The translations under genes were made by a program, and so were the position numbers. From positions 2,130,001 through 2,162,000 of the forward strand of contig NC_003364.1 of NCBI RefSeq assembly GCF_000007225.1: a stretch of DNA of 32,000 nt. The letters are read 5' to 3'. This DNA comes from Pyrobaculum aerophilum str. IM2 (lineage in GTDB: Archaea > Thermoproteota > Thermoprotei > Thermoproteales > Thermoproteaceae). This document shows positions 8,150 to 32,000 of the stretch, one piece after another; position 1 is the stretch's first letter, and every line of letters begins with the position of its first letter. Below the pieces are notes generated by a model that worked only from the letters and a program-made list of their open reading frames with translations, was not told the DNA's origin and searched no databases.

Positions 8150-8526
8150 TTCCGACTAGCCCGCGGGATCTCGAGAGGGTGTTAAAACGAATGGGCATAA
8201 AAGTAGAGGAGATAGACGCGGCGTATGCAGAGATAAAATTAAAAAACGGCGAGGTTATTAGAATAAACAGCCCCACCGTGGCCCTGGTGAAAATGCCAAA
8301 TAAGCTGTTGTTATACCAAATTCAAGCCCCGGAGAGCGCCGTCCAGAAAGTGGCTCCGCAGACACAGCCCCAGACTGCTGAATATACCCCCAGCGAAGAG
8401 GACATTGCGTTAGTCGCCGAGCAGACGGGCGCGCCGAGGGAGGAAGTAATCAAGGCGTTAATAGAGGCCAAGGGGGATTTAGTACAAGCAGCGATGAAGT
8501 TATTGTCTAAAAAACAACAGAAATAG
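8146..8526 (+). CDS. nac: nascent polypeptide-associated complex protein (NAC) with C-terminal UBA domain
   Basis: NAC beta-barrel region ([28 protein letters not shown]) and a UBA-like tail ([36 protein letters not shown]). ATGA overlap with alaS. Confidence 0.85.
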
Positions 8527-8573
8527 CGTCGCCAGGGCTGATAAAGTTTATATTATACCTTCATCTGGGAGGT

Positions 8574-9116
8574 ATGCCAGTTAGGCCGGCGAGGTGTTAC
8601 AAACGCATTAAAGGCCCTCCATACACTAGAGAGGAGTACATCCACGGCGCCCCCATGATTCAAATTCCTAAGTTCGACATGGGCACAACCAGCGCCGCTG
8701 CGCGGACGGCCTTTACCATGACGGCAAAGCTAGTAGTAGAGGAGAGGGGCCAGATCAGAATGCAGGCGTTAGAGGCAGCGAGGCAAATGGCGTCTAAATA
8801 CTTAACAAAATACGTAGGCGACGCCAATTATTACTTAAGGCTTAACGTCGTCCCCCACCACGTCCTCAGGGAGAATAGAATGTTGGCTATGGCGGGGGCG
8901 GACCGCCTCCAGGAGGGCATGAGGCTAGCCTTCGGCTCCCCGGCCGGGAGGGCCGCCAGGGTGGAGCCCGGACAAGTGCTTTTCTACGCGGAGTTTAAAC
9001 CGGAACACCTCCCCCACATTAAAGAGGCGCTGAGGCGCGCCGCCTCTAAACTGCCGCTACCCACTCGGATTGTTATTGAGCCAAAGGGCAATGGAGGCAA
9101 CAAGACAGTTACATAA
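8574..9116 (+). CDS. rpl10e: 50S ribosomal protein L10e (uL16)
   Basis: MPVRPARCYKRIKGPPYTREEYIHGAP... is the canonical L10e N-terminus. Confidence 0.95.
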   Translation: MPVRPARCYKRIKGPPYTREEYIHGAPMIQIPKFDMGTTSAAARTAFTMTAKLVVEERGQIRMQALEAARQMASKYLTKYVGDANYYLRLNVVPHHVLRENRMLAMAGADRLQEGMRLAFGSPAGRAARVEPGQVLFYAEFKPEHLPHIKEALRRAASKLPLPTRIVIEPKGNGGNKTVT

Positions 9117-9831
9117 AGACAGAATTGAGGCCGCGCTGGTCTTACTAGAACGCGTCCTCAACGGGGCGGTTACATCCCGCCCATCGCTAGTTTTAGAACT
9201 GCAGACGGTGTATAAAGAGAGGGGCATTGAGCCCTTCCGCGGCCTCTCTAAAGAGGGCGTATACGACAAGGAAATAGCAACGGTATATTTAGTCGGCATT
9301 TATGGGGCTGGGGTGTTGGCCCCGGGGGATTTCGACAATGTTTTCTATATAGAAAACCGCGCGTTAGAGGCCGTTGAGATTATCCGCAACACGGGGGAGG
9401 TGCTCACCCCCGAGCTAAAAGAGGCGCTTGTTAAAAAAACGGGGGAGGTCAAGGGGAAGTCCGCGGAGGATAGGGTATTTAGAGTATTAAGGCTTGTCTT
9501 TACCGGCGTGATGTTGGGCTACTACCCAGAAATGCTCTTGGTAAAATCAATAAAGACGTACGAAACTGCGTACCCAGAGCTGGCACAGCGCCTGTTAAAT
9601 TACGCGGCATTTTACAGCGCTTATAAAATAGCCGAGGAAATAGCCCTGGGGAAAATCAGAAGCGCCGAGGGCTTAAAAATCGCCAAATATACTTACTGTT
9701 TGAGGCTGGGCTTTCAGAAATGTAAGCCTGGGGACAAGCTGATTGCAGAAGTGGCACAGGCCGTGTACAAAGTGGACAGGTCCTTATTGGCGAGGCTTTT
9801 CGCAAAGGGGGTATTGCCAAAAATCGGCTAA
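9091..9831 (+). CDS. conserved hypothetical protein (about 246 aa)
   Basis: Long ORF with normal composition. The ATG at 9091 (MEATRQLHK...) is preferred over the TTG at 9070. No catalytic motif recognised. Confidence 0.55.
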   Translation: MEATRQLHKDRIEAALVLLERVLNGAVTSRPSLVLELQTVYKERGIEPFRGLSKEGVYDKEIATVYLVGIYGAGVLAPGDFDNVFYIENRALEAVEIIRNTGEVLTPELKEALVKKTGEVKGKSAEDRVFRVLRLVFTGVMLGYYPEMLLVKSIKTYETAYPELAQRLLNYAAFYSAYKIAEEIALGKIRSAEGLKIAKYTYCLRLGFQKCKPGDKLIAEVAQAVYKVDRSLLARLFAKGVLPKIG

Positions 9832-9834
9832 CTC

Positions 9835-10803
9835 CTATTTTACAAACCCGTAGGCAGTTAAGTTCATATTTTTAAGGGCCTCTAATACGCAGTCTCCCTT
9901 TTCTGTAAAAGAGGCTACAAACGCCTCGAAATGGCCCACGTTAATAATCTTGGCGGGCTTTCCAGAGGGATCGAGCAATACTACTCTCACCGGCATTGGG
10001 GGATCGTTTAAAAAATCATATGGGGGCTTAAATACATAAACATACACCGCCTTCCCCCCGGGCGCCTCCCCGATATACGCCGTCCAATACCCCGTCTCCT
10101 CGCCGTGCGGCTTTAAGGACAAGTGTTTATTTACTAAAAAGGGCACGTAGGCATATACGCAATCCACAGCGCCTATTTCCAACTTCGTCCAAGCCCCGTC
10201 CAGACTCGGCGCGATGTCCGTGATGTTTGTATTAGGCAAGGCGCTTGGCACGGTTATAGTCAACGTCCCGTTGTAATAGAAGCCAACTCCCAACGCCTTG
10301 TATCTAGCCGTGAGATTTATCCCATAATCCCGCTGTAGCCACCAGCTCACGGCCAACTCCCTATAGCCAATAGGCGCCTTATTGGGATCCGCTAAAGCGA
10401 TTTTCACCTTGGCTAAATCCGCCAGATCTCTCAGGGGGGTTCTACACGCCAAGGCCAGTTTAAACCTGCCCAGAGAGAAGACGCCGCGGGGGCCTACCCT
10501 CTCTATATCCCCCCTAAGCTCTATGTCTACAGAAGCATATAGATCAACTCTAGACCCCGCTTGGATCTTCCTAAGCCCCTCCACAGAGCCCACTGACTGA
10601 ATGCCTCCCGTGCTCATGCCGGCTTTGGCCACGGCGTCTTTTATAACCCGTATTAACGTAGGAGCCACGAAGCTTGAGACGTCTCCCACGCAGGCGGCAG
10701 CACGGGGCTGTGAAGCGGGCTTTTGAGTTACAGCGACAATCCACGCTGCGACAATTAAAAGGGCTGATATTAGCACAATTAAGAGGGCTGTTTTCATGCG
10801 CAT
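9835..10803 (-). CDS. ABC transporter substrate-binding protein, molybdate/tungstate (ModA/WtpA-like), N-terminally membrane-anchored
   Basis: N-terminal TM helix, plus ADPNKAPIGYRE, which resembles the oxyanion-binding motif of WtpA/ModA-type binding proteins. Divergent from a ModB-like permease and an ATPase. Confidence 0.65.
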   Translation of the reverse strand: MRMKTALLIVLISALLIVAAWIVAVTQKPASQPRAAACVGDVSSFVAPTLIRVIKDAVAKAGMSTGGIQSVGSVEGLRKIQAGSRVDLYASVDIELRGDIERVGPRGVFSLGRFKLALACRTPLRDLADLAKVKIALADPNKAPIGYRELAVSWWLQRDYGINLTARYKALGVGFYYNGTLTITVPSALPNTNITDIAPSLDGAWTKLEIGAVDCVYAYVPFLVNKHLSLKPHGEETGYWTAYIGEAPGGKAVYVYVFKPPYDFLNDPPMPVRVVLLDPSGKPAKIINVGHFEAFVASFTEKGDCVLEALKNMNLTAYGFVK

Positions 10804-10956
10804 AAGACGACAAAATAAAGAGGCTATAAAAATTCACTTTACAAAAAATAAAAGTAAACAATTAGAAATAAATTAATAATAAATTGGTGTTTAGTAATGT
10901 TTTTAATTATTTAAGATTGAAGAAAAGCCTTTAAGGCGCTGAGACAGTAGGCTCTT
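10804..10956. promoter_or_regulatory. very AT-rich divergent promoter region of the Mo/W-type ABC transporter genes
   Basis: 153-bp gap between divergent starts. TTTTTATAG (minus strand) lies about 26 nt from start 10803. CTTTAAGG lies about 24 nt from start 10957. About 80 bp of A/T-rich DNA sits between them. Confidence 0.6.
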
Positions 10957-11676
10957 ATGGCCGTAGCCGCTGTTATTATACTCTTACTGCTATTAATAAT
11001 ACTGCCTCTGCTTTACGCCGGCCCGTTGCCGCCGGGGTTTACAGAGACGTTGTTAACCACGGCTTTTTTCAGCGGCGTAGCCTCTGTTATATCGCTTCCC
11101 TTTGGGCTGGCGACTGCTCTATGGGGGAGATCCCCTGGCAGGGCGTTTATCTCCCAAGTCTTGTATGTACCAGCCGTCGTCCCCCCCACTTCAGTCGGCG
11201 TCTTACTGCTAAGCGCTGTTATGAGCCCCTCGAAGATATGCTCGGCGGTGGGGCAGAATTGCGACTTTATATCAAACGCCTTATATGCCTTTTTTGTAAA
11301 TAAGCCCGCCGGGGTGTTGTTGGCAATGTTCGTCATGGCGTTACCAGTTTCGTATGTCGTTTTCGACGGGGCGTTGAGAGAAATCAGGGCTGAGGCTTAT
11401 TTCAAGTCCCTAGGCTTTAAGGGGGCCGGTTTGTTGTTGATGATACTGCTCTCCCTGAGGAAGGCTACTATCTCTGCCTTTATATTCTCCTTCCTCAGGG
11501 GCTTCGGCGAGTTGGGAGTGTTGTTAATATTCGCCTCATATCCCCCAACGCTTTCTATATACATATACAACGCCTGGCTTATCTACGGCGTTGGCCCAGC
11601 GGTTACGGCCTCGCTCCTCGCAATGGGAGTAGGGATAGTCTCGGCATATGTAGTGAGGATATGGTTCTCAAAATAA
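10957..11676 (+). CDS. ABC transporter permease (ModB/CysTW-like)
   Basis: Multi-TM protein with LYVPAVVPPTSVGVLLL, resembling the ModB PLVLPPVVxG segment. Confidence 0.75.
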   Translation: MAVAAVIILLLLLIILPLLYAGPLPPGFTETLLTTAFFSGVASVISLPFGLATALWGRSPGRAFISQVLYVPAVVPPTSVGVLLLSAVMSPSKICSAVGQNCDFISNALYAFFVNKPAGVLLAMFVMALPVSYVVFDGALREIRAEAYFKSLGFKGAGLLLMILLSLRKATISAFIFSFLRGFGELGVLLIFASYPPTLSIYIYNAWLIYGVGPAVTASLLAMGVGIVSAYVVRIWFSK

Positions 11677-12320
11677 CAAACCTCAAGGCCCGGAGGGGCG
11701 GGTTTCAGCTATATGTAGAGAGGCTAGAGGTAAACTCCGTGGTGGCGCTTGTGGGGAGAAACGGCAGCGGCAAAACTACTCTACTAGACGCAGTGGCCGG
11801 GCTCATTCCCGCCGAAGGCGCCGTGGAGGCTTGCGGGCGAGAAGTGTCGGCTCTCCCGCCCGAGGAGAGGAAGCTTGTCTACATCCAGGCAACCCCCGTA
11901 GACCTCCCAATGAAGCCGAGGAGGTTTTTACGCCTCGTGGCCTCAAAATGGGGGAAGGGGGAATGGGAGGTGAAGGAGGTTGTGGAGAGGCTGGGAATAG
12001 GGAATCTTCTAAACTCGTCCGGCCTCTCCACTGGGCAGAAACAACTTCTCAACATCGCCGCCGGACTGCTGGCTGAGCCCTGTGCCTTTTTAATGGACGA
12101 GCCCACATCGCATTTAGACTGGTTTAACAAAAGAATAGTGAACGACGTGGTGAAGAAAATCGGCGTCCCAGTCTTATACGTAACCCACGACCCCTTTGAG
12201 GCCTTTTATGTAGGAGACGTGATCTGCTTGATAGAAGGAGGGAGGATCCGGGGGTGCAGGGAGAACACCCCGGCGGATTTCTCAGAGGTGGAGAGGATCG
12301 TCAAGTCTCTCTATTTATAA
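11661..12320 (+). CDS. ABC transporter ATP-binding protein (short, no C-terminal regulatory domain)
   Basis: Walker A GRNGSGKTT, signature LSTGQKQLL, Walker B FLMDEPTSHLD, H-loop YVTHD. Confidence 0.85.
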   Translation: MVLKITNLKARRGGFQLYVERLEVNSVVALVGRNGSGKTTLLDAVAGLIPAEGAVEACGREVSALPPEERKLVYIQATPVDLPMKPRRFLRLVASKWGKGEWEVKEVVERLGIGNLLNSSGLSTGQKQLLNIAAGLLAEPCAFLMDEPTSHLDWFNKRIVNDVVKKIGVPVLYVTHDPFEAFYVGDVICLIEGGRIRGCRENTPADFSEVERIVKSLYL

Positions 12321-12905
12321 ACAACGTGCCGCGAATTTCCTCACAGCCTCTGCGACAGCCTTGACGTGCTCCTCTGTCTTGGGCGAGTGGCCCATGCCCT
12401 GCACCTCCACCACCTCCAGGGGGAAGTTAAATCTGTCGGAGAGGCCGGCGAGAATATCAATATGAGTCCTCGGCACTACGTAATCCTCAGAGCCTCTTAT
12501 GTAAAGCACTGGCGGCATTCCGTTGCCAATAAAACGAGACGGCGAAGTCTGTTCCAATTTACTCCCGAGGGACGCCAAGTCGTTGGCCAGTTTCTTAAGA
12601 TAGGGATCGCTGGACTGGGAGAGGTATTGCAACTGTAGCCTCCTATCCACTGGCGCCGCCACTGCTATAACGCACTTGACAGAACCCGGGTTTTTAGCGG
12701 CTAAGAGCAGGGCGACAGTCCCGCCCATGCTGTGGCCTGCGGCCACTGACACTGGTAGCTCTTTGAGGCCTCTCTCATAGCCGTCCTCTACATCTCTAAT
12801 TGGAGGCGCCACGACTCCAAAGCCCGCCTCCTCTAGGGGCTTTACCAGCCACTCAATGTTTGAGGGCGAGCTTTTATAACCGTGGAATACAATGGCCTTA
12901 GGCAT
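12315..12905 (-). CDS. alpha/beta-hydrolase (esterase/lipase-like)
   Basis: Nucleophile elbow GHSMGG, a late GMGHSP histidine region, and about 196 aa. Confidence 0.8.
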   Translation of the reverse strand: MPKAIVFHGYKSSPSNIEWLVKPLEEAGFGVVAPPIRDVEDGYERGLKELPVSVAAGHSMGGTVALLLAAKNPGSVKCVIAVAAPVDRRLQLQYLSQSSDPYLKKLANDLASLGSKLEQTSPSRFIGNGMPPVLYIRGSEDYVVPRTHIDILAGLSDRFNFPLEVVEVQGMGHSPKTEEHVKAVAEAVRKFAARCL

Positions 12906-12956
12906 GGCGTCAAGTGGGTTGTGCTTTATAAATTTTAGACCCCGTAATTGTTTTAA

Positions 12957-13799
12957 ATGGGAGTAGAAGGGGATGTGATGAAGTTGGAAGTTAAAATCAG
13001 CGGGTTGCCTCGGGACAAGAGGAATATTCTGGTGATGGCCTGCCCAGAGCCTTCCCTCGCAGGGGTAGTTGCCGTCGAGTACCTCATAGACGCGTTAAAA
13101 ATGGAGGAGATAGGCGCCATAAGGATCACAGAAATGCCCCCAGTTATTGCGGTGGTGAACGGAGCCGCCAAGCTCCCCTACAGGATTTTCTACTCCAGAG
13201 AGGCAGGAATAGTGGCAATTAGACAACACGTCCCAATACCTCCACAGATATATGCCGAGTTTATACGTAAAGTTTTAGACTGGGCAGAGGAGAACAAGGT
13301 AAAATTAGTGGTGTGCCTCTCAGCCATGCCAGCTGCGGGCGATAGGGAGAGCGAAAACGTGTATTTCGTCACAGAGGAGGGCTTAGTGGAAAAGTTTAAA
13401 CAATACGGCTTTGAGCCCATAAAGGAGGCGACGGTTGCCGGCCTAGAAGGGGCTTATCTAGACGCCGTATTGGGCAGGGGTATTGACGGCGCGTTGCTCA
13501 TCGCCGAGTCGAAATTACTCACAGCGATTAAAAGATTAGTGGACAGCGGCAAGATCTCCACCCACCGCGACGTGATGTTAATACTCAACGACTTAGTTGG
13601 CCGCGTGGGCCCAGACGTGGGCGCGGCCTTAAAGCTAATAAACGCCGTGGCTAGGCTGGCCGAGACCCAAATAGACACGGCGAAGTTGCAAGAGCACGCT
13701 TCTAAATACGCGTTTTTAATTGAGAAAAATCTCGAGGCACTCTTCAAGCCAGTAGAGGCCGTGGCGGCTCAACGGAGAGAGGTGCCGTTAGTGTTTTAA
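12957..13799 (+). CDS. PAC2-family proteasome assembly chaperone-like protein
   Basis: N-terminal NILVMACPEPSLAGVVAVEYLIDALKMEEIGAI... matches the PAC2/COG1938 pattern. A TTTATAAATTTT TATA lies about 25 nt upstream of the ATG at 12957. Confidence 0.65.
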   Translation: MGVEGDVMKLEVKISGLPRDKRNILVMACPEPSLAGVVAVEYLIDALKMEEIGAIRITEMPPVIAVVNGAAKLPYRIFYSREAGIVAIRQHVPIPPQIYAEFIRKVLDWAEENKVKLVVCLSAMPAAGDRESENVYFVTEEGLVEKFKQYGFEPIKEATVAGLEGAYLDAVLGRGIDGALLIAESKLLTAIKRLVDSGKISTHRDVMLILNDLVGRVGPDVGAALKLINAVARLAETQIDTAKLQEHASKYAFLIEKNLEALFKPVEAVAAQRREVPLVF

Positions 13800-13834
13800 G
13801 AAAAATTTATTAAAGGGGACAAGCCTTTTTCCCC

Positions 13835-14374
13835 ATGCCTAGCTGGAAAGAGCTAGTTTTAGTAAAGGGACACCCAATGCAGAGGATATATATAGAGAAA
13901 GTAGTTGTGAACATAGGCGTCGGCGCCAGCGGCGAGAAGTTAGAAAAAGCGGCTGGACTGTTAAAAGAGCTAACTGGTGCAGAGCCCTCGAGGAGAAGAG
14001 CCAAGAAGTCCATAAAAGACTTTGGAATAAGAAAGGGCGAGCCAATAGGAGTAGCGGTCACCCTCAGGAGAGACCAAGCCGTAAACTTCTTAATGCGGGC
14101 GCTACAGGCGGTGAACAACAGAGTAAAAAAGACCAGTTTTGACGACAGGGGCAACGTTTGTTTTGGAATAAAAGAGCACATCCTGCTCCCCGGGGTGAAA
14201 TACGACCCAGCCGTTGGCATATGGGGCATGGACGTCTGCGTAAAACTCGCCAAGCCGGGGCTAAGAGTACAGCTTAGAAGAAGGCGGAGGAGCAAAGTGG
14301 GGAAAAGGCAATTGGTAACAAAAGAGGAGGCAATTGAATTCTTCCAAAAAGTACTAGGCGTACAAGTAGACTAG
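13835..14374 (+). CDS. rpl5: 50S ribosomal protein L5 (uL5)
   Basis: HPMQRIYIEKVVVNIGVG...IKDFGIRKGEPIGVAVTLR is canonical archaeal L5. A TATA (AAAAATTTATTAAA) lies about 25 nt upstream. Confidence 0.93.
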   Translation: MPSWKELVLVKGHPMQRIYIEKVVVNIGVGASGEKLEKAAGLLKELTGAEPSRRRAKKSIKDFGIRKGEPIGVAVTLRRDQAVNFLMRALQAVNNRVKKTSFDDRGNVCFGIKEHILLPGVKYDPAVGIWGMDVCVKLAKPGLRVQLRRRRRSKVGKRQLVTKEEAIEFFQKVLGVQVD

Positions 14375-16244: not shown

Positions 16245-17373
16245 CCGTGGCGCCGGTGCGTTCAAAATACAGCCGGGCCTCTTCATACACGTCGTCGAGG
16301 ACATAGGCCAGATGGTTGCCGAGGCCCGCCCTCAGCACATCTCTCCCGCGGCCAGTTAATAGCCTCACAGCGACTTGAGTACTACAAGCCTCAACTCTCT
16401 GCGCCTCTATAGTGACGCCCTTGAGGAGGAGGGCTTTTTTCAAATCGCTTGAAACTCTGAGGAGAGTCACCGGCAGGCCCGGCGGCACCTCTACTCTCAA
16501 CGCAGCGGGGGCCCTAGTGGCCATCCGGGGGACGATTGAATACCTCCCAAAGGAAGGCGGCGCTCCGTCGTGAGTTAATAACAACACGTCGTCTCCAACA
16601 GAATTGACGTTACTTATCCAAGAGGGCTTTCCAGACAGTCTTTTTAAAACCACCGCTGAATAGAGGGCCCTCAAATCGCCTTCACACGTAGCAGTGATCC
16701 CCCAGTCGTTAAGAACGGCCAGGGAGATGCACGGAGTCCACTTGCGGAGGCTCACTTTTTCAAAATCAAAACACCAACAACCCAGAGTCAGGCCATCGAC
16801 GTTTTTAGCCGCCTCCCGCAGGGCTTTGGCATATGCCATAATCCTTGCGATTTCCCCCACGCCGAAATCGCTATGTTCCGCCTTTGATAACAAATCCCCA
16901 GCCTCGGCCGCCGCCTCAATCTCTAGGCTTTTTCTATAAACTTCCTCCTCATTTATGGCGACGTCGGGCTTGCCTGGGAGGTCGGAGGCCGCAAGCCATT
17001 TATTGGGAGCGCCCACAAGCGCCAGTCTGGGAGGCTTTTGCAACAACTCCACTACTCTGAGGATTCTCTCCACTCTCCCGGCAGGCGGCGGAGATCCCGG
17101 GGCCTCCAGCTGTATCACCTCTGCGAATTTCCCGCTCTCTCTCAACGCGGCCGTAGCCTCGAGGGCGGCCGGCAAGGAGTTATAATGAGGCCACGCCAGC
17201 AATATGTTGTAATCGCCCGCGTTTGCTAAAATCTCAGGCTCTGACCCGCCGGTTAAGACTAGTATGAAATTAGCCCTTGGCAGAAAGTCCCTGAAGGCCT
17301 CTTCGTAAATACGCCTATACTCCTCGCGCGTTTCGTCGTCCACGTTAGGCGCTGCCGCGACGCGGAGTCCCAT
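16234..17373 (-). CDS. hypothetical protein with resemblance to the fucose/arabinose-isomerase-like (COG2407-type) family
   Basis: TPCISLAVLNDWGITATCEGDLRALYS resembles the ACEGD-containing segment of that family. Otherwise unassigned. It lies 23 nt downstream of the UPF0210 gene on the same strand. Confidence 0.5.
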   Translation of the reverse strand: MGLRVAAAPNVDDETREEYRRIYEEAFRDFLPRANFILVLTGGSEPEILANAGDYNILLAWPHYNSLPAALEATAALRESGKFAEVIQLEAPGSPPPAGRVERILRVVELLQKPPRLALVGAPNKWLAASDLPGKPDVAINEEEVYRKSLEIEAAAEAGDLLSKAEHSDFGVGEIARIMAYAKALREAAKNVDGLTLGCWCFDFEKVSLRKWTPCISLAVLNDWGITATCEGDLRALYSAVVLKRLSGKPSWISNVNSVGDDVLLLTHDGAPPSFGRYSIVPRMATRAPAALRVEVPPGLPVTLLRVSSDLKKALLLKGVTIEAQRVEACSTQVAVRLLTGRGRDVLRAGLGNHLAYVLDDVYEEARLYFERTGATVIP

Positions 17374-22405: not shown

Positions 22406-22527
22406 TACTCCTCGGGCTTAGGCCACCACACCTTGTCTCCAATAGTTTTCAAAGCCCTGTCCTCAACTAAGTCGCGTATGGAGACAACGCCGCCGAGTGT
22501 GCCGTCATTATTTAAAACAAGCAAGTG
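22405..22527 (-). pseudogene. 5'-truncated remnant of a second CBS-domain gene
   Basis: The minus-strand frame reads (TGA)[43 protein letters not shown]. This is the C-terminal CBS repeat only. Its TAA overlaps the ATG of the intact CBS gene (TAATG). There is no ATG/GTG start (only a TTG) and no N-terminal part. Confidence 0.55.
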
Positions 22528-24213
22528 TCAAATGGGAGAGCTAATAAAGCCGCGCTCATATGGGTTACTCCGTACTGGGAGGCAAGGGTTTTGAGGTATT
22601 GGGATCTGTACAGAGAGGTAAACCGCCTCTCTGTGCTGTTGAGGTCCCTGGGGGTAGAGAAGGGGGATAGAGTGGCTATTTACATGCCCATGATCCCCGA
22701 GGTCATGATCGCCATGTTGGCAGTTAATAGAATAGGGGCTGTCCACACGGTAGTCTTCTCGGGATTCGGCGCGCAGGCATTAGCAGATAGAATTGTGGAC
22801 TCGGGGGCTAAGCTGGTAATTACAGCAGACGGCATGAGGCGGAGGGGGAAAGTGACGCCCTTAAGCCCACGGTGGACGAGGCGTTGAAAATCGCCGGAGA
22901 CGACGTACAAGTATTGGTGTATAGACACGTCGGAGTTGGGGTGAATATGTGGCCCGGGAAAGACCTCTGGTGGCACGAGGAGACGTCTAAAATCCCGCCT
23001 AATACATACGCCGAGCCTGAGTGGGTTGAAGGGAATGCCCCGCTGTTCATTCTCTACACATCGGGGACCACTGGGAAGCCCAAGGGGATATTACACTTCC
23101 ACGGCCAGTATATGGTTTGGATTAAATACGCCTTTAGCCACTTAGTGGGTGCCGAGAAGGAGTTCAAAGACGACATAGTTTTCTTTTCCACTGCTGAAAT
23201 AGGTTGGATATCGGGCCATCACTACGGCGTTCACGGCCCCTTGCTTAACGGACTGACGGTGTTGTGGTATGAGGACGCCCCAGACTATCCGCACCCCGGC
23301 GTGTGGTGGGAGATCGTAGATGCCTACAAGGTGACTCACGTGTTGTTCTCCCCCACTGCCATTAGGCTTTTGATGAAATACGGAGAGGAATGGCCCATGA
23401 GGTATAAACTCACGACGTTAATGGCACTGTACCCTACGGGGGAGGTTTTAAACGAAGAGGCGTACAACTGGATGAGGAAGTATTTATGTAGAGAGAGGCC
23501 CGACTGTCAAATTGCAGATATATGGGGCCAGACAGAGACGGCGTGTTTCGTCACAGCCCCCGGCTCAATGAACTTGGGGGGTTCCGCTAAAGTACGGCTC
23601 AGTGGGCATGCCCTACCCAACCCTAAGGCTAGTTATACTTGACGACGAGGGAAAGGAGTTGCCCCCAGGCCAAAAGGGACATGTAGCCGTCAAGCCCCCG
23701 TTGCCGCCCGACTTTTTACATACCTTATGGAGAGACCCGGAGGGGTATGTGAAAAGCTACTGCAGCCGCTTCCTCGGCTATTATCTCACCGGGGATGTTG
23801 GGTATATAGACGAAGAGGGACATTTACACATATTGGGCAGATCAGACGACGTGATTAAAATAGCTGGCCACCGCCTCTCCACTAGGGAGGTGGAGGACAT
23901 ATTAACGTCTCACCCGGCCGTAGCTGAGGCGTCTCCCCGACCCAGTTAGGGGAGAGGTGCTGGGGGTTTCGTCGTTCCGAAATTAGGCGCTAAGATAACT
24001 GAAGAGGACGTGGTAAAACACCTAAGGTCTACCCTCGGGCCGGTGGCCGTCGTGGGGAAAGTGGCCGTGTTGAACAAATTGCCCAAGACGAGGATTGGGA
24101 AAGTCATGCGGAGAGTTCTAAGGGCTGTGGCCACAGGCCAGCCGCTGGGAGATTTAAGCACGTTAGAAGAGCAGAAGGCGTTAGAGGAGCTAAAGGCCTT
24201 GTTAAATAAGTAG
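22525..24213 (+). pseudogene. acs: acetyl-CoA synthetase (AMP-forming), 5'-truncated and broken by four frameshifts
   Basis: ACS motifs are spread over five frame segments (22525-22887, 22872-23642, 23602-23949, a short patch at 23936-23986, and 24010-24213): KAALIW..., [53 protein letters not shown]. The first roughly 90 residues of a normal ACS are absent. Confidence 0.85.
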
Positions 24214-24877: not shown

Positions 24878-25924
24878 ATGGCTGTTAGAATAGACGGCTC
24901 ATACGGCGAGGGGGGCGGGCAGATATTGAGGACTTCCATAGCCCTCTCCGCGTTGCTGGGAAGGCCTGTGGAAATTGTGAACATCAGAGCTAAGAGGGCC
25001 AACCCAGGCCTCCAGCCGCAACACCTCACGGGCGTAAAGGTCGCCGCGCTGTTAACAGACGCGGAAGTAAAAGGCGCCGAGAAGGGGTCCACCCGCCTTT
25101 ATTTTGAGCCCAAGACCTTGAAGTGCGGGAATTTCAGTATCGACATTGGGACCGCCGGGAGTATTTCGCTAATAGTACAAACGCTAGCCCCAATACTGCT
25201 CTACGCGCCCTGTCCAACGCAAATAACAGTAACTGGGGGTACAGACGTGGCTTGGGCGCCTCCCATTGACTACATGAGGTTTGTCTTCACAAAAGTACTA
25301 GAGCGCTTCGGCGCCAAGCTCAGCATAGAGCTAATTCGGCGTGGCCATTACCCAAGGGGAGGGGGGAGGGCAGTGGTCAGGGCTGAGCCGGTGAAAAGGC
25401 TCAAGGCCGTAGAGTCAGAGGAGTTCGGCAACGTGGTTAAAATCTCGGGAATTTCACACGCAGTAAACCTCCCTCCGCACGTCGCAGAGCGCCAAGCAAA
25501 AGCCGCGAGAGAGGAGCTGTCTAAAATGGGACTAGACGCTGATATTGCCATAGAGGTTAGAAACGACGGCTTGGGCCCGGGAAGCGGCGTTGTGATCTGG
25601 GCGGTGTCAGATGCAGGCAATGTTATCGGCGGCGACTCGCTCGGCGAGAGGGGCAAGCCGGCTGAGACAGTGGGGAAGGAGGCGGCTCAGAAATTAATAG
25701 CTGTGCTCAAGACGCGGGCCTCGGTCGACCCCCACATGGCGGATATGGCAGTGTTGTACATGGCTCTGGCAGAGGGGCGGAGCAGAATATCCACATCAGA
25801 GGAGACAATGCACTTAAAGACTAACATGTACATTATCGAGCAGTTCTTGAGGGTAAAATTCAGTACTATGGAAAAAGCCGGAAGATATACAATTGAAGTA
25901 GAGGGCGTTGGCTATAATCGATAA
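24878..25924 (+). CDS. rtcA: RNA 3'-terminal phosphate cyclase
   Basis: [41 protein letters not shown] is the canonical RtcA N-terminus, and HMADM is present downstream. Confidence 0.9.
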
Positions 25925-26823
25925 CGTTGTATCATTAGTGCTATTAAGAATAGGGTTAACATAGGGCTAGACGCTTTGTACATTTTCCACATGGCCTCTT
26001 CCGTTTTTTTAACTGCGGCGTATATGCTTGTGGCTATTGTGGCGGCTACGCCGAGGGCCACTATCGCCCCCCCTGCCCCTCCTCCAAATTGTAAATACAG
26101 CCAGAGGATGTAGGCGGCAGCCGCCGCGTTTATAGCCGATATTACCGCCACTGCCCTCTCTTCTTTTATTAACGCGGGTAACATCGGCACCCCTGCCCTT
26201 TTGTAATCCCCTCTGTATTTAAAAGCTAGGGCCCATATGTGAGAGGGAGTCCAGAGGTATATGGCAAAGGAGATGAGGACGGCGGGGAGGTCCACAGTCC
26301 CCTTGGCCAAGGCGTACCCCCCTAGAAAAACTGCGTTTCCGGCAAAACCCCCTCCGAAAATATTCAGCCAAGTCCTCCTCTTGAGGACAATTGTGTAAAC
26401 CACTGCGTAGAAAAGCCAGCCCAGCAGTACGAAAAGGCCGGGGAGGAGGCCCAGCAGTAAAAAGCCCAGGGAAATCCCCGTTGCTGAAAGGGCGAGGGAG
26501 TAGGCGAGGGCGGCGTTAGGCGTAATTAGCCCGGAGGGAAGAGGCCTTTTAAAAGTCCTCGTCATTAAGGCGTCTATATCCCTCTCCCAGTAGTGATTAA
26601 AAGCAGCAGAGCCCCCAGTGGAGAGAAAAGCCACAGCCAAGAGGGAAAAAAGACGGCTGTCAACGCCGCCCCCGCCGTAAATATAGCCAGCAACAGAGGC
26701 CAAAATAAGGAGCCAAATAACCCGCGGTTTTAATAAAGAGATATAGGGAGACACGAATTTTATATAGTGAGGTAGTGAAAAATATTTATGGAAACTATAA
26801 TGACTTTTTATTTTATAAATCAC
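25912..26823 (-). CDS. ctaB: protohaem IX farnesyltransferase (haem O synthase, UbiA family)
   Basis: [23 protein letters not shown] (UbiA Asp-rich motif) and about 8-9 TM helices. The first 26 codons of the longest ORF are AT-rich and promoter-like. The in-frame GTG at 26745 is an alternative start (278 aa). Confidence 0.88.
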
Positions 26824-26835
26824 GGAAAAAAGAAA

Positions 26836-27453
26836 TTAAGATTGTGACCTTGCCAGTGCCATCTTAAACATTTCAACTAAGGCGGGGACATATTCCGTCG
26901 CCCACTTGTCGCCGTAGGTCTTCTTAAAGGCTTCGGTCTGGGTGAACATAGTTGGTGCGAGGTCTTTATCGCCTTCTGTTAGAAACTTGGCAACGAGCTG
27001 TGCAGCCTTGTCCAAATTGGCGGCGGGGTTTGTTAACCCGTTTTTCTCAAAATATTCTAACATAATGGGGCCGCCAGCAGTGCCCTTCTCAACGCCTACA
27101 TTGCCGAGAAGAGTCTTTGACAAATCCGGGCCTATATTGCCCCCAACCTCAATGCCAGCGCCTTTTACCGTGTGGCACGCATTACATGCCAGCTCTTTAA
27201 ATAACTGAACGCCCTTTTGGGCGAGTTGCTCATTATAGCTTATTTTAATGGAGGGCGTCGGTTGTTGGCCTATAGGCGTTGTGCCCGTGACGGTAACTGG
27301 CTGGCGCGTCGTTGTGACAGGCGATTCTGTTACAGTAGTTGATATCACTTCTGTTTTTGTCCTCACCTCAACGCCCGGCTGATAGGTAAACGCCAATGCG
27401 CCCACGACAATGCCTATTATCGCTATTACTGCGTATACTACATCTTTGCCCAT
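26836..27453 (-). CDS. membrane-anchored monohaem c-type cytochrome
   Basis: N-terminal TM helix (VVYAVIAIIGIVVGALAF), a Thr/Pro/Val-rich linker (TTVTESPVTTTRQPVTVTGTTPIGQQPTPS), and a single CNACH haem-c motif in a roughly 120-aa C-terminal domain. Confidence 0.8.
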   Translation of the reverse strand: MGKDVVYAVIAIIGIVVGALAFTYQPGVEVRTKTEVISTTVTESPVTTTRQPVTVTGTTPIGQQPTPSIKISYNEQLAQKGVQLFKELACNACHTVKGAGIEVGGNIGPDLSKTLLGNVGVEKGTAGGPIMLEYFEKNGLTNPAANLDKAAQLVAKFLTEGDKDLAPTMFTQTEAFKKTYGDKWATEYVPALVEMFKMALARSQS

Positions 27454-27538
27454 GGGGTTCCAAAGCAGGTGTGCACAAAAACAATTTGGTTAACGGGATT
27501 AACACAAAAACTTATGACATATCGGGGGCAGTACGTTC
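27454..27538. promoter_or_regulatory. divergent promoter region between the cytochrome c and nirS genes
   Basis: 85-bp gap containing a 9-bp direct repeat CACAAAAAC (27474-27482 and 27503-27511) and TGGTTAAC (27487-27494). Confidence 0.5.
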
Positions 27539-29176
27539 ATGGCCGAAAAACAAACTTCCTCCAGAAGAGATTTGTTAAAAGCCGCGGCTGTGGCGGGCAT
27601 CGGCTTTGCCATTGGTAGCTGGGCTGTCGCCTTAAGCAGAGGCAAGGCGGTGGTCGAGGTGACTTCACAAAGAGTAGAGGAGGTGAGAGTAAAGCCCCAG
27701 GTGGAGGTCCAGCCGGTGGTACAGCAAGTGGCACAACAACAACCCGCCGGGCCCGTAGCCCCTCAGCACCCGGCGTTTGAAAAGAGAGGCCTCGCCTACT
27801 TAAACCCCGACTATATCCAATCTACTTTGAGAGTGTTAGTGCCAGAAGATCAGCTCCCGCCGAAGCCCACGGCGTTTAACATAAACGACTTAGACTGGAT
27901 AGCTATAATGATTGAGAGCAGATACCACGAGCCTGGCGTAGAGATGGTAGGGGCTTACACTTTCTTAGATATGAAGAATTTCAAGGTATTGAAGAGAGTT
28001 AAAAACGCCGGAGATAGAGTACATGTTGTTAGATTTGGCAGAGAGGAGTGGCCGGAGCATAAGAGGCGGTTTGCCATAGGCATGTCTAGAGACTGCCGGC
28101 TCTCAAAAATAGATCTCTACACAATGCAAATCGTGAGACAGATTAAAATAGGCGTTGATTGTAGAAGCGCCGCGTATGACAAAGACGGTAAGTACATAAT
28201 TGCGGGGAGTAAAGACCCAGGCCACGCCGTAATACTCGACGCAGATACTTTTAAAGTGCTTAAGGTAATTCCCTTCTTGGGGCCCTCTAAATTCTTCCCA
28301 ACGCCAATGATGGGAAGGCAGGGCGCCATCCTCGCCACAGATCTCGGCTACTGGCTCGTCAATGTAAAAGACGCCGAGATGGTTTTAGTAATAGACTATA
28401 GATCTCCCGACTTCCCCATAGTGCACGTGTTCACAAGCTACGACACTAATAGCAAAGGGAGGTCGGTTAAAGTGCAAATAGGTGACAAGACATATGACGT
28501 GACAGGCATTGGCAAAAGCCCCCACGAGTTGAATAAACTTGACAAAGAGGGGCGCTACGTGGCCGTGACAGGCCAAGAGTCAGATACTATTACAATCTTA
28601 GATTTAAAGAATATGGAGATTGTTAACGTCGTTCCCTGCGGCAAAAAGCCGCACCCCGGCCCGGGCACGCTAGTCCCCAATAAATACTTCTTAACTAATG
28701 CCATAGGGGAAGGGGTCATATCTGTGATCAACCTACAGACAATGGACGTGGAAAAGTACATTAAATACCCGAGGGAGTTCCCCGCCGACACTGGCGGCGG
28801 TCTTTATTCAACTCCGCCCCTGCCCGACGGCACAATACCTAAAGGCCTAGCCTGGTTTGACACGTCATTTAACATCAATAAAGGCGTCTTTGCAGTGGAC
28901 ATCCACTTACTCGACGTAGCCACCAGGCCGCCCAAGCCCGCGATCTTCGTCGAGAATAAGCCCGGGAAGTGGGCCATGCACCCAGGCCACACGCCTGATG
29001 GTAGATATGTAATCAGCGCTTTGGAGAGGACAGACTCCGTCTATAAAGTCGATGTTGAAACTGGGGAAATAGTGGACATAATAAGGCTTAAGGAGATAGA
29101 GCCAGTGCAACTTCTAGAAGAGCCCTCGCCCACCGGGATATTCCCGGCGTGGAGAATAAAGGCGCCGTGGTTCTAG
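27539..29176 (+). CDS. nirS: cytochrome d1-domain nitrite reductase (NirS-like, no haem-c domain) with twin-arginine signal
   Basis: Tat motif SRRDLLK plus a hydrophobic region. By manual alignment the d1 beta-propeller motifs match P. aeruginosa NirS: VHVVRF..MSRDCRLSKIDL..IKIGVDCRS, KSPHELNKLDKEGRYV, GKKPHPGPG, SPTGIF. No CxxCH motif occurs anywhere in the 545 aa. Confidence 0.8.
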   Translation: MAEKQTSSRRDLLKAAAVAGIGFAIGSWAVALSRGKAVVEVTSQRVEEVRVKPQVEVQPVVQQVAQQQPAGPVAPQHPAFEKRGLAYLNPDYIQSTLRVLVPEDQLPPKPTAFNINDLDWIAIMIESRYHEPGVEMVGAYTFLDMKNFKVLKRVKNAGDRVHVVRFGREEWPEHKRRFAIGMSRDCRLSKIDLYTMQIVRQIKIGVDCRSAAYDKDGKYIIAGSKDPGHAVILDADTFKVLKVIPFLGPSKFFPTPMMGRQGAILATDLGYWLVNVKDAEMVLVIDYRSPDFPIVHVFTSYDTNSKGRSVKVQIGDKTYDVTGIGKSPHELNKLDKEGRYVAVTGQESDTITILDLKNMEIVNVVPCGKKPHPGPGTLVPNKYFLTNAIGEGVISVINLQTMDVEKYIKYPREFPADTGGGLYSTPPLPDGTIPKGLAWFDTSFNINKGVFAVDIHLLDVATRPPKPAIFVENKPGKWAMHPGHTPDGRYVISALERTDSVYKVDVETGEIVDIIRLKEIEPVQLLEEPSPTGIFPAWRIKAPWF

Positions 29177-29733
29177 GCAAAATATACGTCGTAGGCGCGG
29201 GGCCGGGAGATCCAGAGCTCATAACCCTCAGGGGTTTTTTCCTCCTCCTCTCAGCCGACGCAGTTATTGCCGGCTCGTTAGTGCCCGAGGAATTAGTGGA
29301 TATTATGAGGGAAAAAGTGGTGTATAGAGAGAGGCTGACCAAGGAGAGGCATGAGGAGGCCGTGGCCACCGCCATACGCCTGGCCAAGGAGGGCAAAACC
29401 GTAGTTGTTTTAAAAAACGGGGACCCGGTGCTCTACGGCAGGGGATTTGAGATATGTGAAGAGGCCAATAGAGAGGGCGTGCCCTGTGAAATAGTGCCTG
29501 GGGTTACCTCCCTCACTGCAGCCGCGGCGAAGTATAAAATCCCCATCGGGCGCGGCGGCCGCCCCATTTTGTTAAAAACCGGGAGGAGCTCGGGGGATCC
29601 AGACGTGGTGATATTCATGCCTGAAAACGGCGCTGAAGGCTTAGTGGTGGAGGATTTATACGGCCCGGGGGAGAGGATTTACCAGGGCAAGCCCAGGGGG
29701 CGACCTGCCATTGTCTTCCAGATTAAAGGCTAA
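29149..29733 (+). CDS. short tetrapyrrole (uroporphyrinogen-III/SUMT-like) methyltransferase
   Basis: GKIYVVGAGPGDPELITLRG, LKNGDPVLYGRG and VPGVTSLTAAAA are SUMT/CobA/NirE-type motifs. It is only 188-194 aa. It overlaps the nirS 3' end; the alternative GTG is at 29167. Confidence 0.7.
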   Translation: MENKGAVVLGKIYVVGAGPGDPELITLRGFFLLLSADAVIAGSLVPEELVDIMREKVVYRERLTKERHEEAVATAIRLAKEGKTVVVLKNGDPVLYGRGFEICEEANREGVPCEIVPGVTSLTAAAAKYKIPIGRGGRPILLKTGRSSGDPDVVIFMPENGAEGLVVEDLYGPGERIYQGKPRGRPAIVFQIKG

Positions 29734-30857
29734 GCGGATAATTGCATTAGCCTCCTTTGAGTGTACAGCAAAAACGCCACAATCGCTATGCCTACAAGAG
29801 GCCCGCTTACAACGGCGAGGGACGGCGTGTAGGCGTAGGCGTAGCCCGCCCTTGCCAACATGCCGACGTTTAACAGGAGAAAAGTGACAACCTCAAGTAT
29901 TGGAACTCCTCTTCTAGGTTTTACCACTATTCTTTTCTGCATCTGTGTAGCTATCATGTCAATTAGTATTACGTCTACGCCGAAGACTATATTAAAAATA
30001 AACCCCAAGGCTAAGGCGTGCGTCGCGACGTCCCGCCACAAGGTCGGGGCGCCGAGGAAAAGTATTAACCCCGCCGCCATTAGCCAGAGGTAGGCGGACC
30101 AAATCTTCACGTATGAGAAGAGCTTCTCCGTCCTGGCGTATTGGGCGACGCCTGAGAAAAGTATTGACGCCGTCCCGCTGGCCGCCAGGAGCGCGCCGGC
30201 GGCTTCTACAATTCCAAAAGTCCACATGGCGAAGGAGGCGACGAGCAATAGAAAGGCCAAGACGCCTAGCCGCTCCCTCGCGGGCCTTCTCCCCGTCACT
30301 AATGCGATGTCTCTGGCCATAACGGCGTAAATCATACTCACTGGGAATATCAACATGGCGACGCCCAAATCCCCTCCCCCAATCCACGCCGTTATATACA
30401 GCGCTATAGACGCCGCGAGGGAGGCGACGATTAGATAGTTATAGGCCGAGGGCCTAAACCCCATTTTAGACGGCTTTAGATACGTCCTGGAGTATGTTAT
30501 CAAGACTAGCAACATCGCGAGGTAGGCCGCTGAGGACAGCCACGCGGCCCCCGCAACAGTCCCCGCCAGCAGAGCCCACAACAAGGCGGCGTATAGGGCC
30601 AGCGTAATGCCGCCCGCCTGCCTCCCAGACCACTCCATGGACAGCACGTTTAAAAGCTCGTTCCCTATGAGAGCTGCGAAAAAGCCGGCGATCATTAAAT
30701 AAAAGTGTTGTGTAACTTCAAGCTTAATGGGGAAGCTGGTGCCGGCCCAGCTCCACATAATTCCAATTCCGCCAAGTCCTCCAAGCACTAGCGATATTAA
30801 GCCGGGGGCCATTACGGGTATGACTCTCCTTGGCGTAAACACCTCTCCCATAGCCAT
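29730..30857 (-). CDS. polytopic membrane protein, NnrS-like
   Basis: About 12 predicted TM helices. The His-containing helices TQHFYLMIAGFF and THALALGFIFNIVFGV resemble the conserved His motifs of NnrS. It sits in a denitrification gene context. Confidence 0.5.
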   Translation of the reverse strand: MAMGEVFTPRRVIPVMAPGLISLVLGGLGGIGIMWSWAGTSFPIKLEVTQHFYLMIAGFFAALIGNELLNVLSMEWSGRQAGGITLALYAALLWALLAGTVAGAAWLSSAAYLAMLLVLITYSRTYLKPSKMGFRPSAYNYLIVASLAASIALYITAWIGGGDLGVAMLIFPVSMIYAVMARDIALVTGRRPARERLGVLAFLLLVASFAMWTFGIVEAAGALLAASGTASILFSGVAQYARTEKLFSYVKIWSAYLWLMAAGLILFLGAPTLWRDVATHALALGFIFNIVFGVDVILIDMIATQMQKRIVVKPRRGVPILEVVTFLLLNVGMLARAGYAYAYTPSLAVVSGPLVGIAIVAFLLYTQRRLMQLSA

Positions 30858-31197
30858 GTTCTCGTTATGAAGACAAATACGTGGCAGTTATTCTGATTAA
30901 CTAAAGGGCATAAAAACCGCGGGATGCGGAATTGGCGTAATGCCCTTCTAGGGCGCCCGTTGCAACGCCCCATTTTAATAGCCTTTGTATAAGGCGCGTA
31001 CTTCCCTCTGTACTGATGTGAGGGTGATGATGGTCAAGCATGTGTTGAGATCTGTGCGCGTTTAAACTTGGCGGAGGCCGAGAGATCGGATGTCTGTTAT
31101 CTCTACCCGCTTAATGTTAACATTTGGCGTAAGCTTGCACTTTGTGTTTTTATGTTATTGTGGTTAACCAGAATTTATAACTTAACACCGGCGTAAT
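30830..31197 (+). repeat. array of co-oriented TTGGCGTAA motifs (three exact copies plus one partial)
   Basis: Exact 9-mers at 30830-30838, 30932-30940 and 31124-31132. A cGGCGTAA copy at 31190-31197 lies just before the norB ATG. Confidence 0.7.
31172..31180 (+). promoter_or_regulatory. TATA box of norB
   Basis: AATTTATAA is centred about 29 nt upstream of ATG 31205 and is preceded by TGGTTAACCA at the BRE position. Confidence 0.55.
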
Positions 31198-31204
31198 AGC
31201 GTTC

Positions 31205-32000
31205 ATGAAAAACGGCTGGACTTATTTCGTGCTTGCCGCCACAGTTCTCGTCTACGTTGTGTACATAGCCATGGCGGTGTGGACTTTTTACAACTTGCCC
31301 CCAATACCTGAGAGAGTGGTTACTAAGAGCGGTGAGTTGTTATTCACGGCGCAGGACATAATAGAGGGTAAGACGCTTGCTCAAAAATATGGTCTTTTAG
31401 ACTACGGCTCCTTCCTGGGATTCGGGGGGTATTTCGGCATTGATTACACCGCATATACCATGAAGTTTTTTGTAGATAAAATAGGACAGTTGAAAGGCAC
31501 TGCCCTGGCCTCAGAAATTAAACACCTCATGACGCCGCAGTTCTCTGCAAAAACCTCCTCTCTGTTTGCCCCAGCGGCAGGAGTCGCGGTGGTCAGCGAC
31601 GAGTTCGGCGCGGCTTATAAACAGGCTGTTGACTTCTACAAACAGCTATTTGGGCCTAAGGCTGAGGAGATAGGCCTCAAGCCCAATTTAATCACAGACC
31701 CCGAACACGTCAGGAAGATAGTATCTTTCTTCACCTGGGGCGTTATGATCGCCATGGCTAATTACACGAACGGCTTCCCCTACATGCCTGGCATTCTCAC
31801 GCCTAATATACACGTCACTGTTGCCACTTGGGTCACTTTCTTTATACTACTGCTTGTCATTATGCCGCTGGCGGGGTGGATAATAATTAAATTTATAGAC
31901 TACTGGAAAGAGCCGAGGATAACCGTTGATCTCCCGCCGCCTTCTAAAGAACAGAGGCTTGCCCTGCTCGGGTTTGTTCTGGCAGTGTTGGGCTTGTCCA
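31205..32000 (+). CDS. norB: quinol-dependent nitric oxide reductase (qNOR-type NorB), N-terminal 265 codons; continues beyond the window
   Basis: The frame is open from ATG 31205 to the window end, so it is absent from the ORF track. N-terminal TM helix, then FTAQDIIEGKTLAQKYGLLDYGSFLGFGGYFGIDYTAYT, typical of the qNOR N-terminal extension. No CxxCH motif. Confidence 0.85.
   Translation, partial: MKNGWTYFVLAATVLVYVVYIAMAVWTFYNLPPIPERVVTKSGELLFTAQDIIEGKTLAQKYGLLDYGSFLGFGGYFGIDYTAYTMKFFVDKIGQLKGTALASEIKHLMTPQFSAKTSSLFAPAAGVAVVSDEFGAAYKQAVDFYKQLFGPKAEEIGLKPNLITDPEHVRKIVSFFTWGVMIAMANYTNGFPYMPGILTPNIHVTVATWVTFFILLLVIMPLAGWIIIKFIDYWKEPRITVDLPPPSKEQRLALLGFVLAVLGLS

Follow-up and report, generated by a model that had tools for sequence, protein, structure and literature searches.

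A d1-only, Tat-targeted NirS-type protein and a divergently encoded cytochrome c as the probable two-gene nitrite reductase of Pyrobaculum aerophilum

Introduction

Two divergently transcribed genes in a 32,000-nucleotide stretch of the Pyrobaculum aerophilum str. IM2 genome (NC_003364.1, positions 2,130,001 to 2,162,000; hereafter the window) encode a 545-aa NirS homologue and a 205-aa monohaem cytochrome c (Table 1). Analysis of this pair makes it highly probable that the respiratory nitrite reductase of P. aerophilum consists of two separately encoded proteins at the outer face of the cytoplasmic membrane. The catalytic subunit would be a NirS-type d1 propeller without haem c, targeted to the twin-arginine translocation (Tat) pathway, and its electrons would come from the divergently encoded cytochrome, held on its own transmembrane (TM) anchor and Thr/Pro-rich stalk. 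The path proposed runs from menaquinol through the bc complex and the tethered cytochrome c to haem d1, where nitrite would be reduced to NO. A bidirectional promoter region of 85 bp, with a palindromic operator at its centre, would drive both genes. The fold, the ligand signature, the Tat motif, the synteny and the conservation of the operator were observed directly; we infer the physical interaction of the two proteins, the uncleaved anchor, the path of the electrons and the site of d1 insertion.

That the enzyme is encoded by two genes is already known, having been annotated since the 2002 genome and described as a two-subunit enzyme by Kletzin et al. 2015. Three translated proteins of the window match GenBank entries of P. 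aerophilum IM2 exactly: AAL65031.1, "nitrite reductase (cytochrome C), conjectural"; AAL65032.1, "nitrite reductase (cytochrome d1), conjectural"; and AAL65033.1, a uroporphyrin-III C-methyltransferase. The sequences are thus identical to those of the known nitrite reductase, and Kletzin et al. 2015 (PMC4429474), citing Feinberg et al. 2008, likewise interpret it as an enzyme whose c and d1 subunits are separate. In the set listed by Storbeck et al. 2010, no archaea other than Pyrobaculum have a potential cd1 enzyme. The additions made here are a residue test of NirS against NirF and NirN, the anatomy of the Tat signal and stalk, the origin of the cytochrome as a bc-complex paralogue, and the shared palindromic operator. 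Nothing discussing the Tat signal, the cytochrome origin or the operator of Pyrobaculum nirS was found in the literature searched, which did not extend to subscription papers.

Results

The 545-aa protein is a d1 propeller with the NirS ligand signature

A preliminary description, made from the sequence of the window alone, had placed the two genes on either side of an 85-bp divergent gap and read the larger as a NirS homologue lacking any CxxCH motif. The reading frames and the gap were verified, and the translation, with three cysteines only, contains no CxxCH; neither do the Pyrobaculum orthologues that were read. The Pfam Cytochrom_D1 profile (PF02239) matched the protein at 104.9 bits (cut-off 25.5). 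An AlphaFold model built with 69 homologues had a mean pLDDT of 84.7 and showed a confident eight-bladed propeller beyond residue 75, the propeller domain occupying residues ~90-545. The best PDB sequence matches were cd1 NirS, and Foldseek ranked cd1 NirS first (6tsi, 1nir), followed by NirN and then NirF, with NirS (1.6e-25) hardly separated from NirN (2.6e-24).

Since the structural search was blind to the difference between NirS and NirN, residues were compared. Reference NirS, NirF and NirN propellers were taken from the annotated nir cluster of a Ruegeria plasmid (gene order nnrS / nirS-nirT-paz-nirE-nirC-nirF-nirDLGH-nirJ-nirN) and aligned with the window protein and its relatives. The three histidine regions named in the preliminary description hold in alignment to P. 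aeruginosa NirS. H162 (VHVVR), invariant in alignments A1 and A2, corresponds to the proximal haem-d1 ligand His182; H329 (SPHE) corresponds to His327 when intermediate sequences join the alignment; and H372 (GKKPHPGPG) corresponds to His369, the surrounding PHPGPG being identical to that of NirS. Together with two haem-binding arginines these residues form a five-position signature, HRRHH, which is the NirS pattern and differs from HRIYH of NirF and HRRDH of NirN (Table 2). The isoleucine found in Ruegeria NirF agrees with Ile90 of the NirF structure paper. In a phmmer comparison the protein scored 67 bits to NirS, 39 to NirF and 36 to NirN. Because of the signature, the PHPGPG identity and the higher phmmer score to NirS, the 545-aa protein is assigned as a NirS-type catalytic subunit without a c-domain, and nitrite-reducing activity is predicted for it.

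Table 1. Features of the nirS region. Positions are those of the window except in the last row.
Feature	Position	Strand	Evidence or remark
Haem O synthase (CtaB/CyoE), directly downstream of cytochrome c gene	25912..26823	-	TIGR01473, 227.8 bits
Membrane-anchored monohaem cytochrome c, 205 aa	26836..27453	-	PF00034; 155c match; conserved divergent neighbour of nirS; exact AAL65031.1
Intergenic gap between cytochrome c gene and nirS, 85 bp	27454-27538		divergent promoters
Palindromic element TGGTTAACGGGATTAACAC, mid-gap, candidate shared operator	27487..27505	.	kept in six Pyrobaculum loci
d1-only NirS catalytic subunit (predicted), 545 aa	27539..29176	+	PF02239; TIGR01409; AlphaFold/Foldseek; HRRHH signature; exact AAL65032.1
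NirE-like tetrapyrrole C-methyltransferase, 194 aa, start overlaps nirS stop	29149..29733	+	PF00590; exact AAL65033.1
Polytopic membrane protein, distantly NnrS-like	29730..30857	-	Pfam NnrS, below cut-off
Palindrome site	30886-30903
Palindrome site, degenerate, preceding the qNOR gene	31153-31170
Quinol-dependent NO reductase (qNOR) gene, 5' part, continues past window end	31205..32000	+	PF22085
Palindrome sites in locus L083 (numbering of that locus)	9949-9967, 12201-12219, 16355-16373, 1449-1466

Table 2. Residues at the five signature positions of the d1 propeller. NirS, NirF and NirN are those of the Ruegeria plasmid cluster.
Position	Window protein	NirS	NirF	NirN
H162	H	H	H	H
R184	R	R	R	R
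R209	R	R	I	R
H329	H	H	Y	D
H372	H	H	H	H

The comparison bears on an alternative in which the propeller is a NirF- or NirN-like protein of d1 biosynthesis and the cytochrome is its NirC-like partner, the two forming a maturation couple and no reductase. The general architecture resembles NirF + NirC, likewise a d1-type propeller without haem c, attached to the membrane at its N-terminus and paired with a small monohaem cytochrome c; the Foldseek values for NirS and NirN are nearly equal, and a tetrapyrrole methylase gene is co-transcribed with the propeller gene. The residues nevertheless make this alternative very improbable. A NirF identity was rejected, as the protein has His and Arg where NirF has Tyr and Ile90, and so was a NirN identity, as it lacks CxxCH and has His where NirN has Asp; the PHPGPG segment and the phmmer scores likewise go with NirS. 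The small soluble NirC also differs from the Pyrobaculum cytochrome, which is TM-anchored and c2/c550-like. Moreover, no other Pyrobaculum d1 propeller occurred among the homologues found, so a biosynthetic role for this one would leave a denitrifier without a nitrite reductase. The preliminary description had named placement with NirF/NirN and loss of the catalytic histidines as the outcome that would overturn its reading; on examination the histidines are present and the NirF and NirN signatures absent.

The likeness to bacterial NirS (P. aeruginosa 1NIR, Paracoccus pantotrophus 1QKS) extends to the eight-bladed d1 propeller, the proximal histidine, the two distal histidines, the haem-binding arginines and a linked nirE. 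In contrast to the bacterial enzymes, the Pyrobaculum protein lacks a fused haem-c domain, carries a Tat and not a Sec-type signal, and probably has a membrane tether; the identity is only about 20-27%, and nirJ, nirF, nirN, nirC and nirDLGH are missing near its gene.

A neighbour-joining tree of d1 domains put the Pyrobaculum proteins on a long isolated branch and was too crude for placement, so that only distances and the signature were used. The NCBIfam model of the clade III lactonase-type N2O reductase (L-NosZ) matched the propeller in part (73.5 bits, cut-off 700), which reflects common propeller repeats and not membership of that family. Several P. aerophilum assemblies hold truncated or split NirS entries (95 + 395, 330, 436 and 486 aa), suggesting strain-level frameshift variation or assembly breaks.

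A conserved Tat signal and a disordered stalk precede the propeller

The twin-arginine motif and low-complexity stalk that the preliminary description had seen were both recovered. The N-terminus carries SRRDLLK followed by 19 uncharged residues and scored 19.6 bits against TIGR01409 (cut-off 16.7), whereas the Pfam TAT_signal profile remained below its cut-off (16.3 against 22.7). The Tat signal and hydrophobic region span residues 1-33 and the Val/Gln/Pro stalk residues ~34-75; residues 1-75 are predicted to be disordered in the AlphaFold model. The RR motif is kept in every intact full-length Pyrobaculum NirS orthologue that was read. The signal is thus real and conserved, and Tat dependence is predicted from it. 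The hydrophobic region and the ~40-residue disordered stalk probably stay on the protein, uncleaved, as a membrane tether.

The cytochrome is a paralogue of a bc-complex subunit

The only haem-c motif nearby lies, as the preliminary description had stated, in the separate divergent gene. Its product has an N-terminal TM helix, a Thr/Pro-rich stalk, the haem site C90-x-x-C93-H94 (CNACH) and Met169, and C90, C93, H94 and M169 are invariant across the cytochrome family aligned. The Cytochrom_C profile (PF00034) reached 22.9 bits, just over its cut-off of 21.3, so that both Pfam profiles by which the preliminary description proposed to check its reading scored above threshold. The best PDB match was Paracoccus cytochrome c550 (155c), though weak (E 0.009), and c2 was also among the best.

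Homologues of the cytochrome were of Pyrobaculum type only. In P. calidifontis, the gene of a paralogue with 48% identity over the haem domain (E 9e-41) lies a few kb off, within a cytochrome c-Rieske-cytochrome b operon, and the relationship between PAE3598 and PAE1347 in Kletzin et al. 2015 (PMC4429474) agrees with this paralogy to the bc operon. Compared with the bc paralogue, the nirS-linked cytochromes have a specific insertion of 10 residues in common. Likeness to a NirS c-domain was limited to the haem motif, which was all that BLASTP aligned (E 0.17) between the cytochrome and the c-d1 protein P0019, one of the nearest fused c-d1 proteins. A detached NirS c-domain was rejected as the identity of the cytochrome, which is c2/c550-like and has its closest paralogue in the bc operon. 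The paralogy, the c550-like character and the lack of resemblance to NirS c-domains argue that the bc complex, by duplication of its cytochrome c subunit, was the source of the c module, which did not arise by splitting of an ancestral cd1 protein. The preliminary description had spoken of split, tethered c and d1 modules: as separate genes they stand, but "split" does not hold as evolutionary history, given this paralogy and the fact that the nearest d1 relatives are cupredoxin fusions and not c fusions.

The protein shares with Paracoccus cytochrome c550 and with membrane-anchored carriers a class I, c2/c550-like haem domain, an N-terminal anchor and a flexible linker. Cytochromes c552 and cy are membrane-anchored c-type electron carriers. 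The Pyrobaculum carrier differs from these in that the sequence match is weak, its gene is divergent with that of the reductase, and it is a paralogue of a bc-complex subunit.

The pair is conserved across Pyrobaculum with a central palindrome

The divergent cytochrome c/nirS pair with ~85-bp spacing was present in all Pyrobaculum loci retrieved (L001-L005, L081, L083 and L085), and every family member whose context was read or cross-matched by contig adjoins a nirS. The divergent pairing noted in the preliminary description extends across Pyrobaculum, as does the candidate operator at its centre. In P. calidifontis the pair adjoins the cytochrome c-Rieske-cytochrome b operon, CcmF, qNOR and nos genes. 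In P. oguniense TE7 (L005 7300-9614) frameshifts and in-frame stops mark the cytochrome c gene as well as nirS as pseudogenes, and there is no methylase gene; the central palindrome is intact.

The 85-bp spacer holds a palindrome, TGGTTAAC-N3-RTTAAC (R = A/G), centred 43 bp from both start codons, and this geometry is conserved between loci (Table 1). The form TGGTTAAC-N3-GTTAACCA lies ~33-52 bp upstream of the start codons of cytochrome c/nirS, nosZ and the haem O synthase gene. In a held-out test, a motif matrix trained on four other loci only recovered the site in the window, P. calidifontis, P. ferrireducens and P. oguniense, and in the last-named role also picked out, for P. calidifontis, copies at about -51 to -33 of nosZ and of the haem O synthase gene. 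In total there were 7 matches, representing 6 distinct sites, where shuffled sequence would be expected to give 0.33. Weaker copies, which come from a matrix whose training took in the window sites, lie in the norB/NarJ-like intergenic region of P. calidifontis, upstream of the window qNOR gene and upstream of the NnrS-like gene. The promoter region of the window qNOR gene, with its degenerate copy, can be aligned to the nirS promoter region. The haem O synthase gene has its own copy where it is located downstream of nirS (the position in L003, L005 and L083). The palindrome is a candidate shared operator of a denitrification regulon in Pyrobaculum, and its presence before nosZ and the haem O synthase gene, with weaker copies at the nor genes, would place the cytochrome/nirS pair in that regulon. 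HTH (helix-turn-helix) proteins of ~150 aa are clustered in the P. calidifontis island and could include a regulator.

These data also bear on whether the cytochrome belongs to nirS at all or is a general membrane-bound carrier, serving NosZ, terminal oxidases or other acceptors, that merely adjoins it. Such a role would suit a paralogue of the bc-complex cytochrome whose gene is followed directly by that of haem O synthase in the window, whose candidate operator is common to nosZ and the haem O synthase gene, and whose copy in P. ferrireducens appears broken beside an intact nirS. It is nonetheless improbable: the cytochrome adjoins nirS wherever the context is known, the spacing and central palindrome are strictly kept, the two genes decay together in P. 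oguniense, and the 10-residue insertion sets the nirS-linked copies apart from the bc paralogue, whereas the haem O synthase gene changes its place between species.

Flanking genes include a short NirE-like methylase

The methyltransferase encoded after nirS matched PF00590 at 130.6 bits and aligned with the P. aeruginosa NirE structures 2ybo/2ybq and with SUMT/CbiF. The match to the N-terminal domain of SUMT, NirE and CbiF covers residues 10-135; the C-terminal domain is about half the usual length, a short form that is kept in other Pyrobaculum species. The gene follows nirS in five of the seven other Pyrobaculum loci covering that side (L001-L004 and L085; not L005 or L083). The protein probably carries out the first committed step towards sirohaem and haem d1, with SUMT activity predicted. 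The neighbouring membrane protein matched Pfam NnrS with E 5.8e-4, under the cut-off but across the whole profile. Homologues with 46-50% identity occur in L001 and L083, making it a conserved neighbour of nirS or nos genes, and an annotated NnrS flanks nirS in Ruegeria too. The 5' part of the qNOR gene matched PF22085 (NorB_cytochrome_c-like) at 84.9 bits. No nirJ, nirF, nirN, nirC or nirDLGH homologues were found within ~10 kb in the Pyrobaculum loci examined, the rest of the genome not having been searched.

Rfam and tRNA scans of the window gave no matches. Elsewhere in the window, an acetyl-CoA synthetase-like gene (22522-24153, + strand) is broken into at least three reading-frame segments, its P. 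ferrireducens counterpart being intact at 635 aa; the window copy is a pseudogene or else belongs to the frameshift-prone genes of P. aerophilum.

Related d1 proteins combine the propeller with different electron-entry modules

An exhaustive HMMER search placed the Pyrobaculum clade in one 50% cluster, with the next relatives at ~35% identity. In Aeropyrum, Acidilobaceae and Thermofilaceae the d1 propeller is joined to a TM anchor without RR and a cupredoxin domain; haloarchaeal-type sequences are Tat-lipobox d1 proteins with or without cupredoxin; candidate-phyla bacteria have multi-TM or cytochrome b5 fusions to d1; and Chloroflexi have c/cupredoxin-d1 forms, already published as C1-C2-NirS forms (PMC8756737). 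The HRRHH signature was present in all of these. The cupredoxin-d1 and c/cupredoxin-d1 NirS variants thus share the d1 propeller and NirS signature with the Pyrobaculum protein and vary in the electron-entry module; in those variants this module is fused, whereas in Pyrobaculum it is a separate gene. The d1 propeller evidently serves as a portable catalytic unit whose electron-entry domain can be exchanged, and Pyrobaculum represents the case in which that domain has a gene of its own.

Crenarchaeal (Aeropyrum, Acidilobaceae, Thermofilaceae) and other proteins with a TM anchor, cupredoxin and d1 carrying the NirS signature, without haem c, are represented by L006 5860-7638, L007 4160-5887, L008 7488-9281, L010 1442-3211, P0013-P0015 and P0106-P0108. 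Such proteins would act as copper-d1 nitrite reductases; the archaeal cupredoxin-d1 form was not described in the papers searched. D1 propellers with the NirS signature and an N-terminal multi-TM fusion (P0021, P0112, P0117, P0122, P0127 and P0128) have an unusual electron-entry module. P0021 contains a cytochrome b5-like domain in Pfam, and the related loci are, by their titles, mostly metagenome-assembled genomes (MAGs) of Patescibacteria/CPR (candidate phyla radiation).

Discussion

Several points weigh against the two-protein, membrane-tethered reductase proposed here. The AlphaFold model of the cytochrome is poor (pLDDT 54) and was set aside, so that its fold rests on weak sequence matches. 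The AVALS/RGK site in the d1 protein could be cut by signal peptidase, and NirS would then be soluble and not tethered. In P. ferrireducens (L085 9312-9913) the cytochrome is called as two pieces of 136 and 64 aa next to an intact nirS, the break falling between CxxCH and the Met ligand; this is either a sequencing error or real decay, with the cytochrome dispensable there. Finally, no nirJ, nirF, nirN or nirC lies within ~10 kb of nirS in the Pyrobaculum loci, so that these loci do not account for the source of haem d1.

The last point is connected with the question of where haem d1 is loaded. The preliminary description had stated that bacterial NirS receives d1 outside the cytoplasm, which is correct: in bacteria the periplasm is the site of the NirF/NirC and NirN steps and of d1 insertion into NirS, and bacterial NirS is not a Tat substrate (PMC13168839). 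It had also suggested that the archaeal subunit is loaded in the cytoplasm before export, which a Tat signal does not show. The signal is suggestive because the final bacterial steps and insertion are periplasmic. If d1 were completed and inserted in the cytoplasm and the holo-protein exported by Tat, no extracytoplasmic NirF, NirC or NirN would be needed, and a bacterial route that is periplasmic and independent of Tat offers a plausible reason for a changed export route in archaea. The motif is kept in all intact orthologues, and no exported NirF/NirN-like propeller or NirC was seen near nirS in the Pyrobaculum loci, a statement limited to the loci since the whole genome was not searched. 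An archaeal MAG (L048) points in the same direction, with a Tat-lipobox cupredoxin-d1 NirS followed by two signal-less d1-like propellers and two NirJ-like radical SAM enzymes. On the other side, NosZ of the same Pyrobaculum island carries a Tat signal as well, so that such a signal is no proof of internal loading. NosZ crosses the membrane as an apo-propeller, its copper being added outside. Fast-folding propellers of hyperthermophiles may use Tat for folding reasons alone, and the nearest crenarchaeal cupredoxin-d1 proteins (Aeropyrum, Acidilobaceae, Thermofilaceae) have plain TM anchors without RR, and this implies that archaea are able to insert d1 outside the cell. Export of a loaded NirS is therefore a possibility held with some doubt, one that would add to the two-protein reductase and not replace it. 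Somewhat more tentative still is the general form of the idea, that Pyrobaculum and other archaea with Tat-targeted d1 proteins load d1 in the cytoplasm, the last steps being done by the NirS propeller or a cytoplasmic paralogue. A search of the literature for Tat-dependent NirS or d1 biosynthesis in Pyrobaculum returned nothing relevant.

The L048 contig, from a Ca. Chewarchaeum MAG, also carries hemA with the genes named above (7320-13964), the two d1-like propellers having no visible signal peptide; this gene set points to a possible d1 pathway that lies wholly in the cytoplasm and is coupled to Tat export. On the same contig (15509-16624) a NirK-like-looking protein, not scanned against Pfam, has a Tat-lipobox N-terminus.

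If cytoplasmic loading is true, it would constitute a second, topologically inverted route of cd1-type biogenesis, without the extracytoplasmic NirF/NirC/NirN steps that are obligatory in bacteria; should NirS leave the cell interior already loaded, archaeal d1 maturation would proceed without periplasmic NirF, NirC and NirN steps. The shared palindromic operator provides a starting point for finding the denitrification regulator of Pyrobaculum. The locus itself indicates that a haem-d1 propeller can work with its electron-entry module in trans, where other lineages fuse cytochrome c, cupredoxin or cytochrome b5 to it, and this modularity bears on the evolution of denitrification enzymes.

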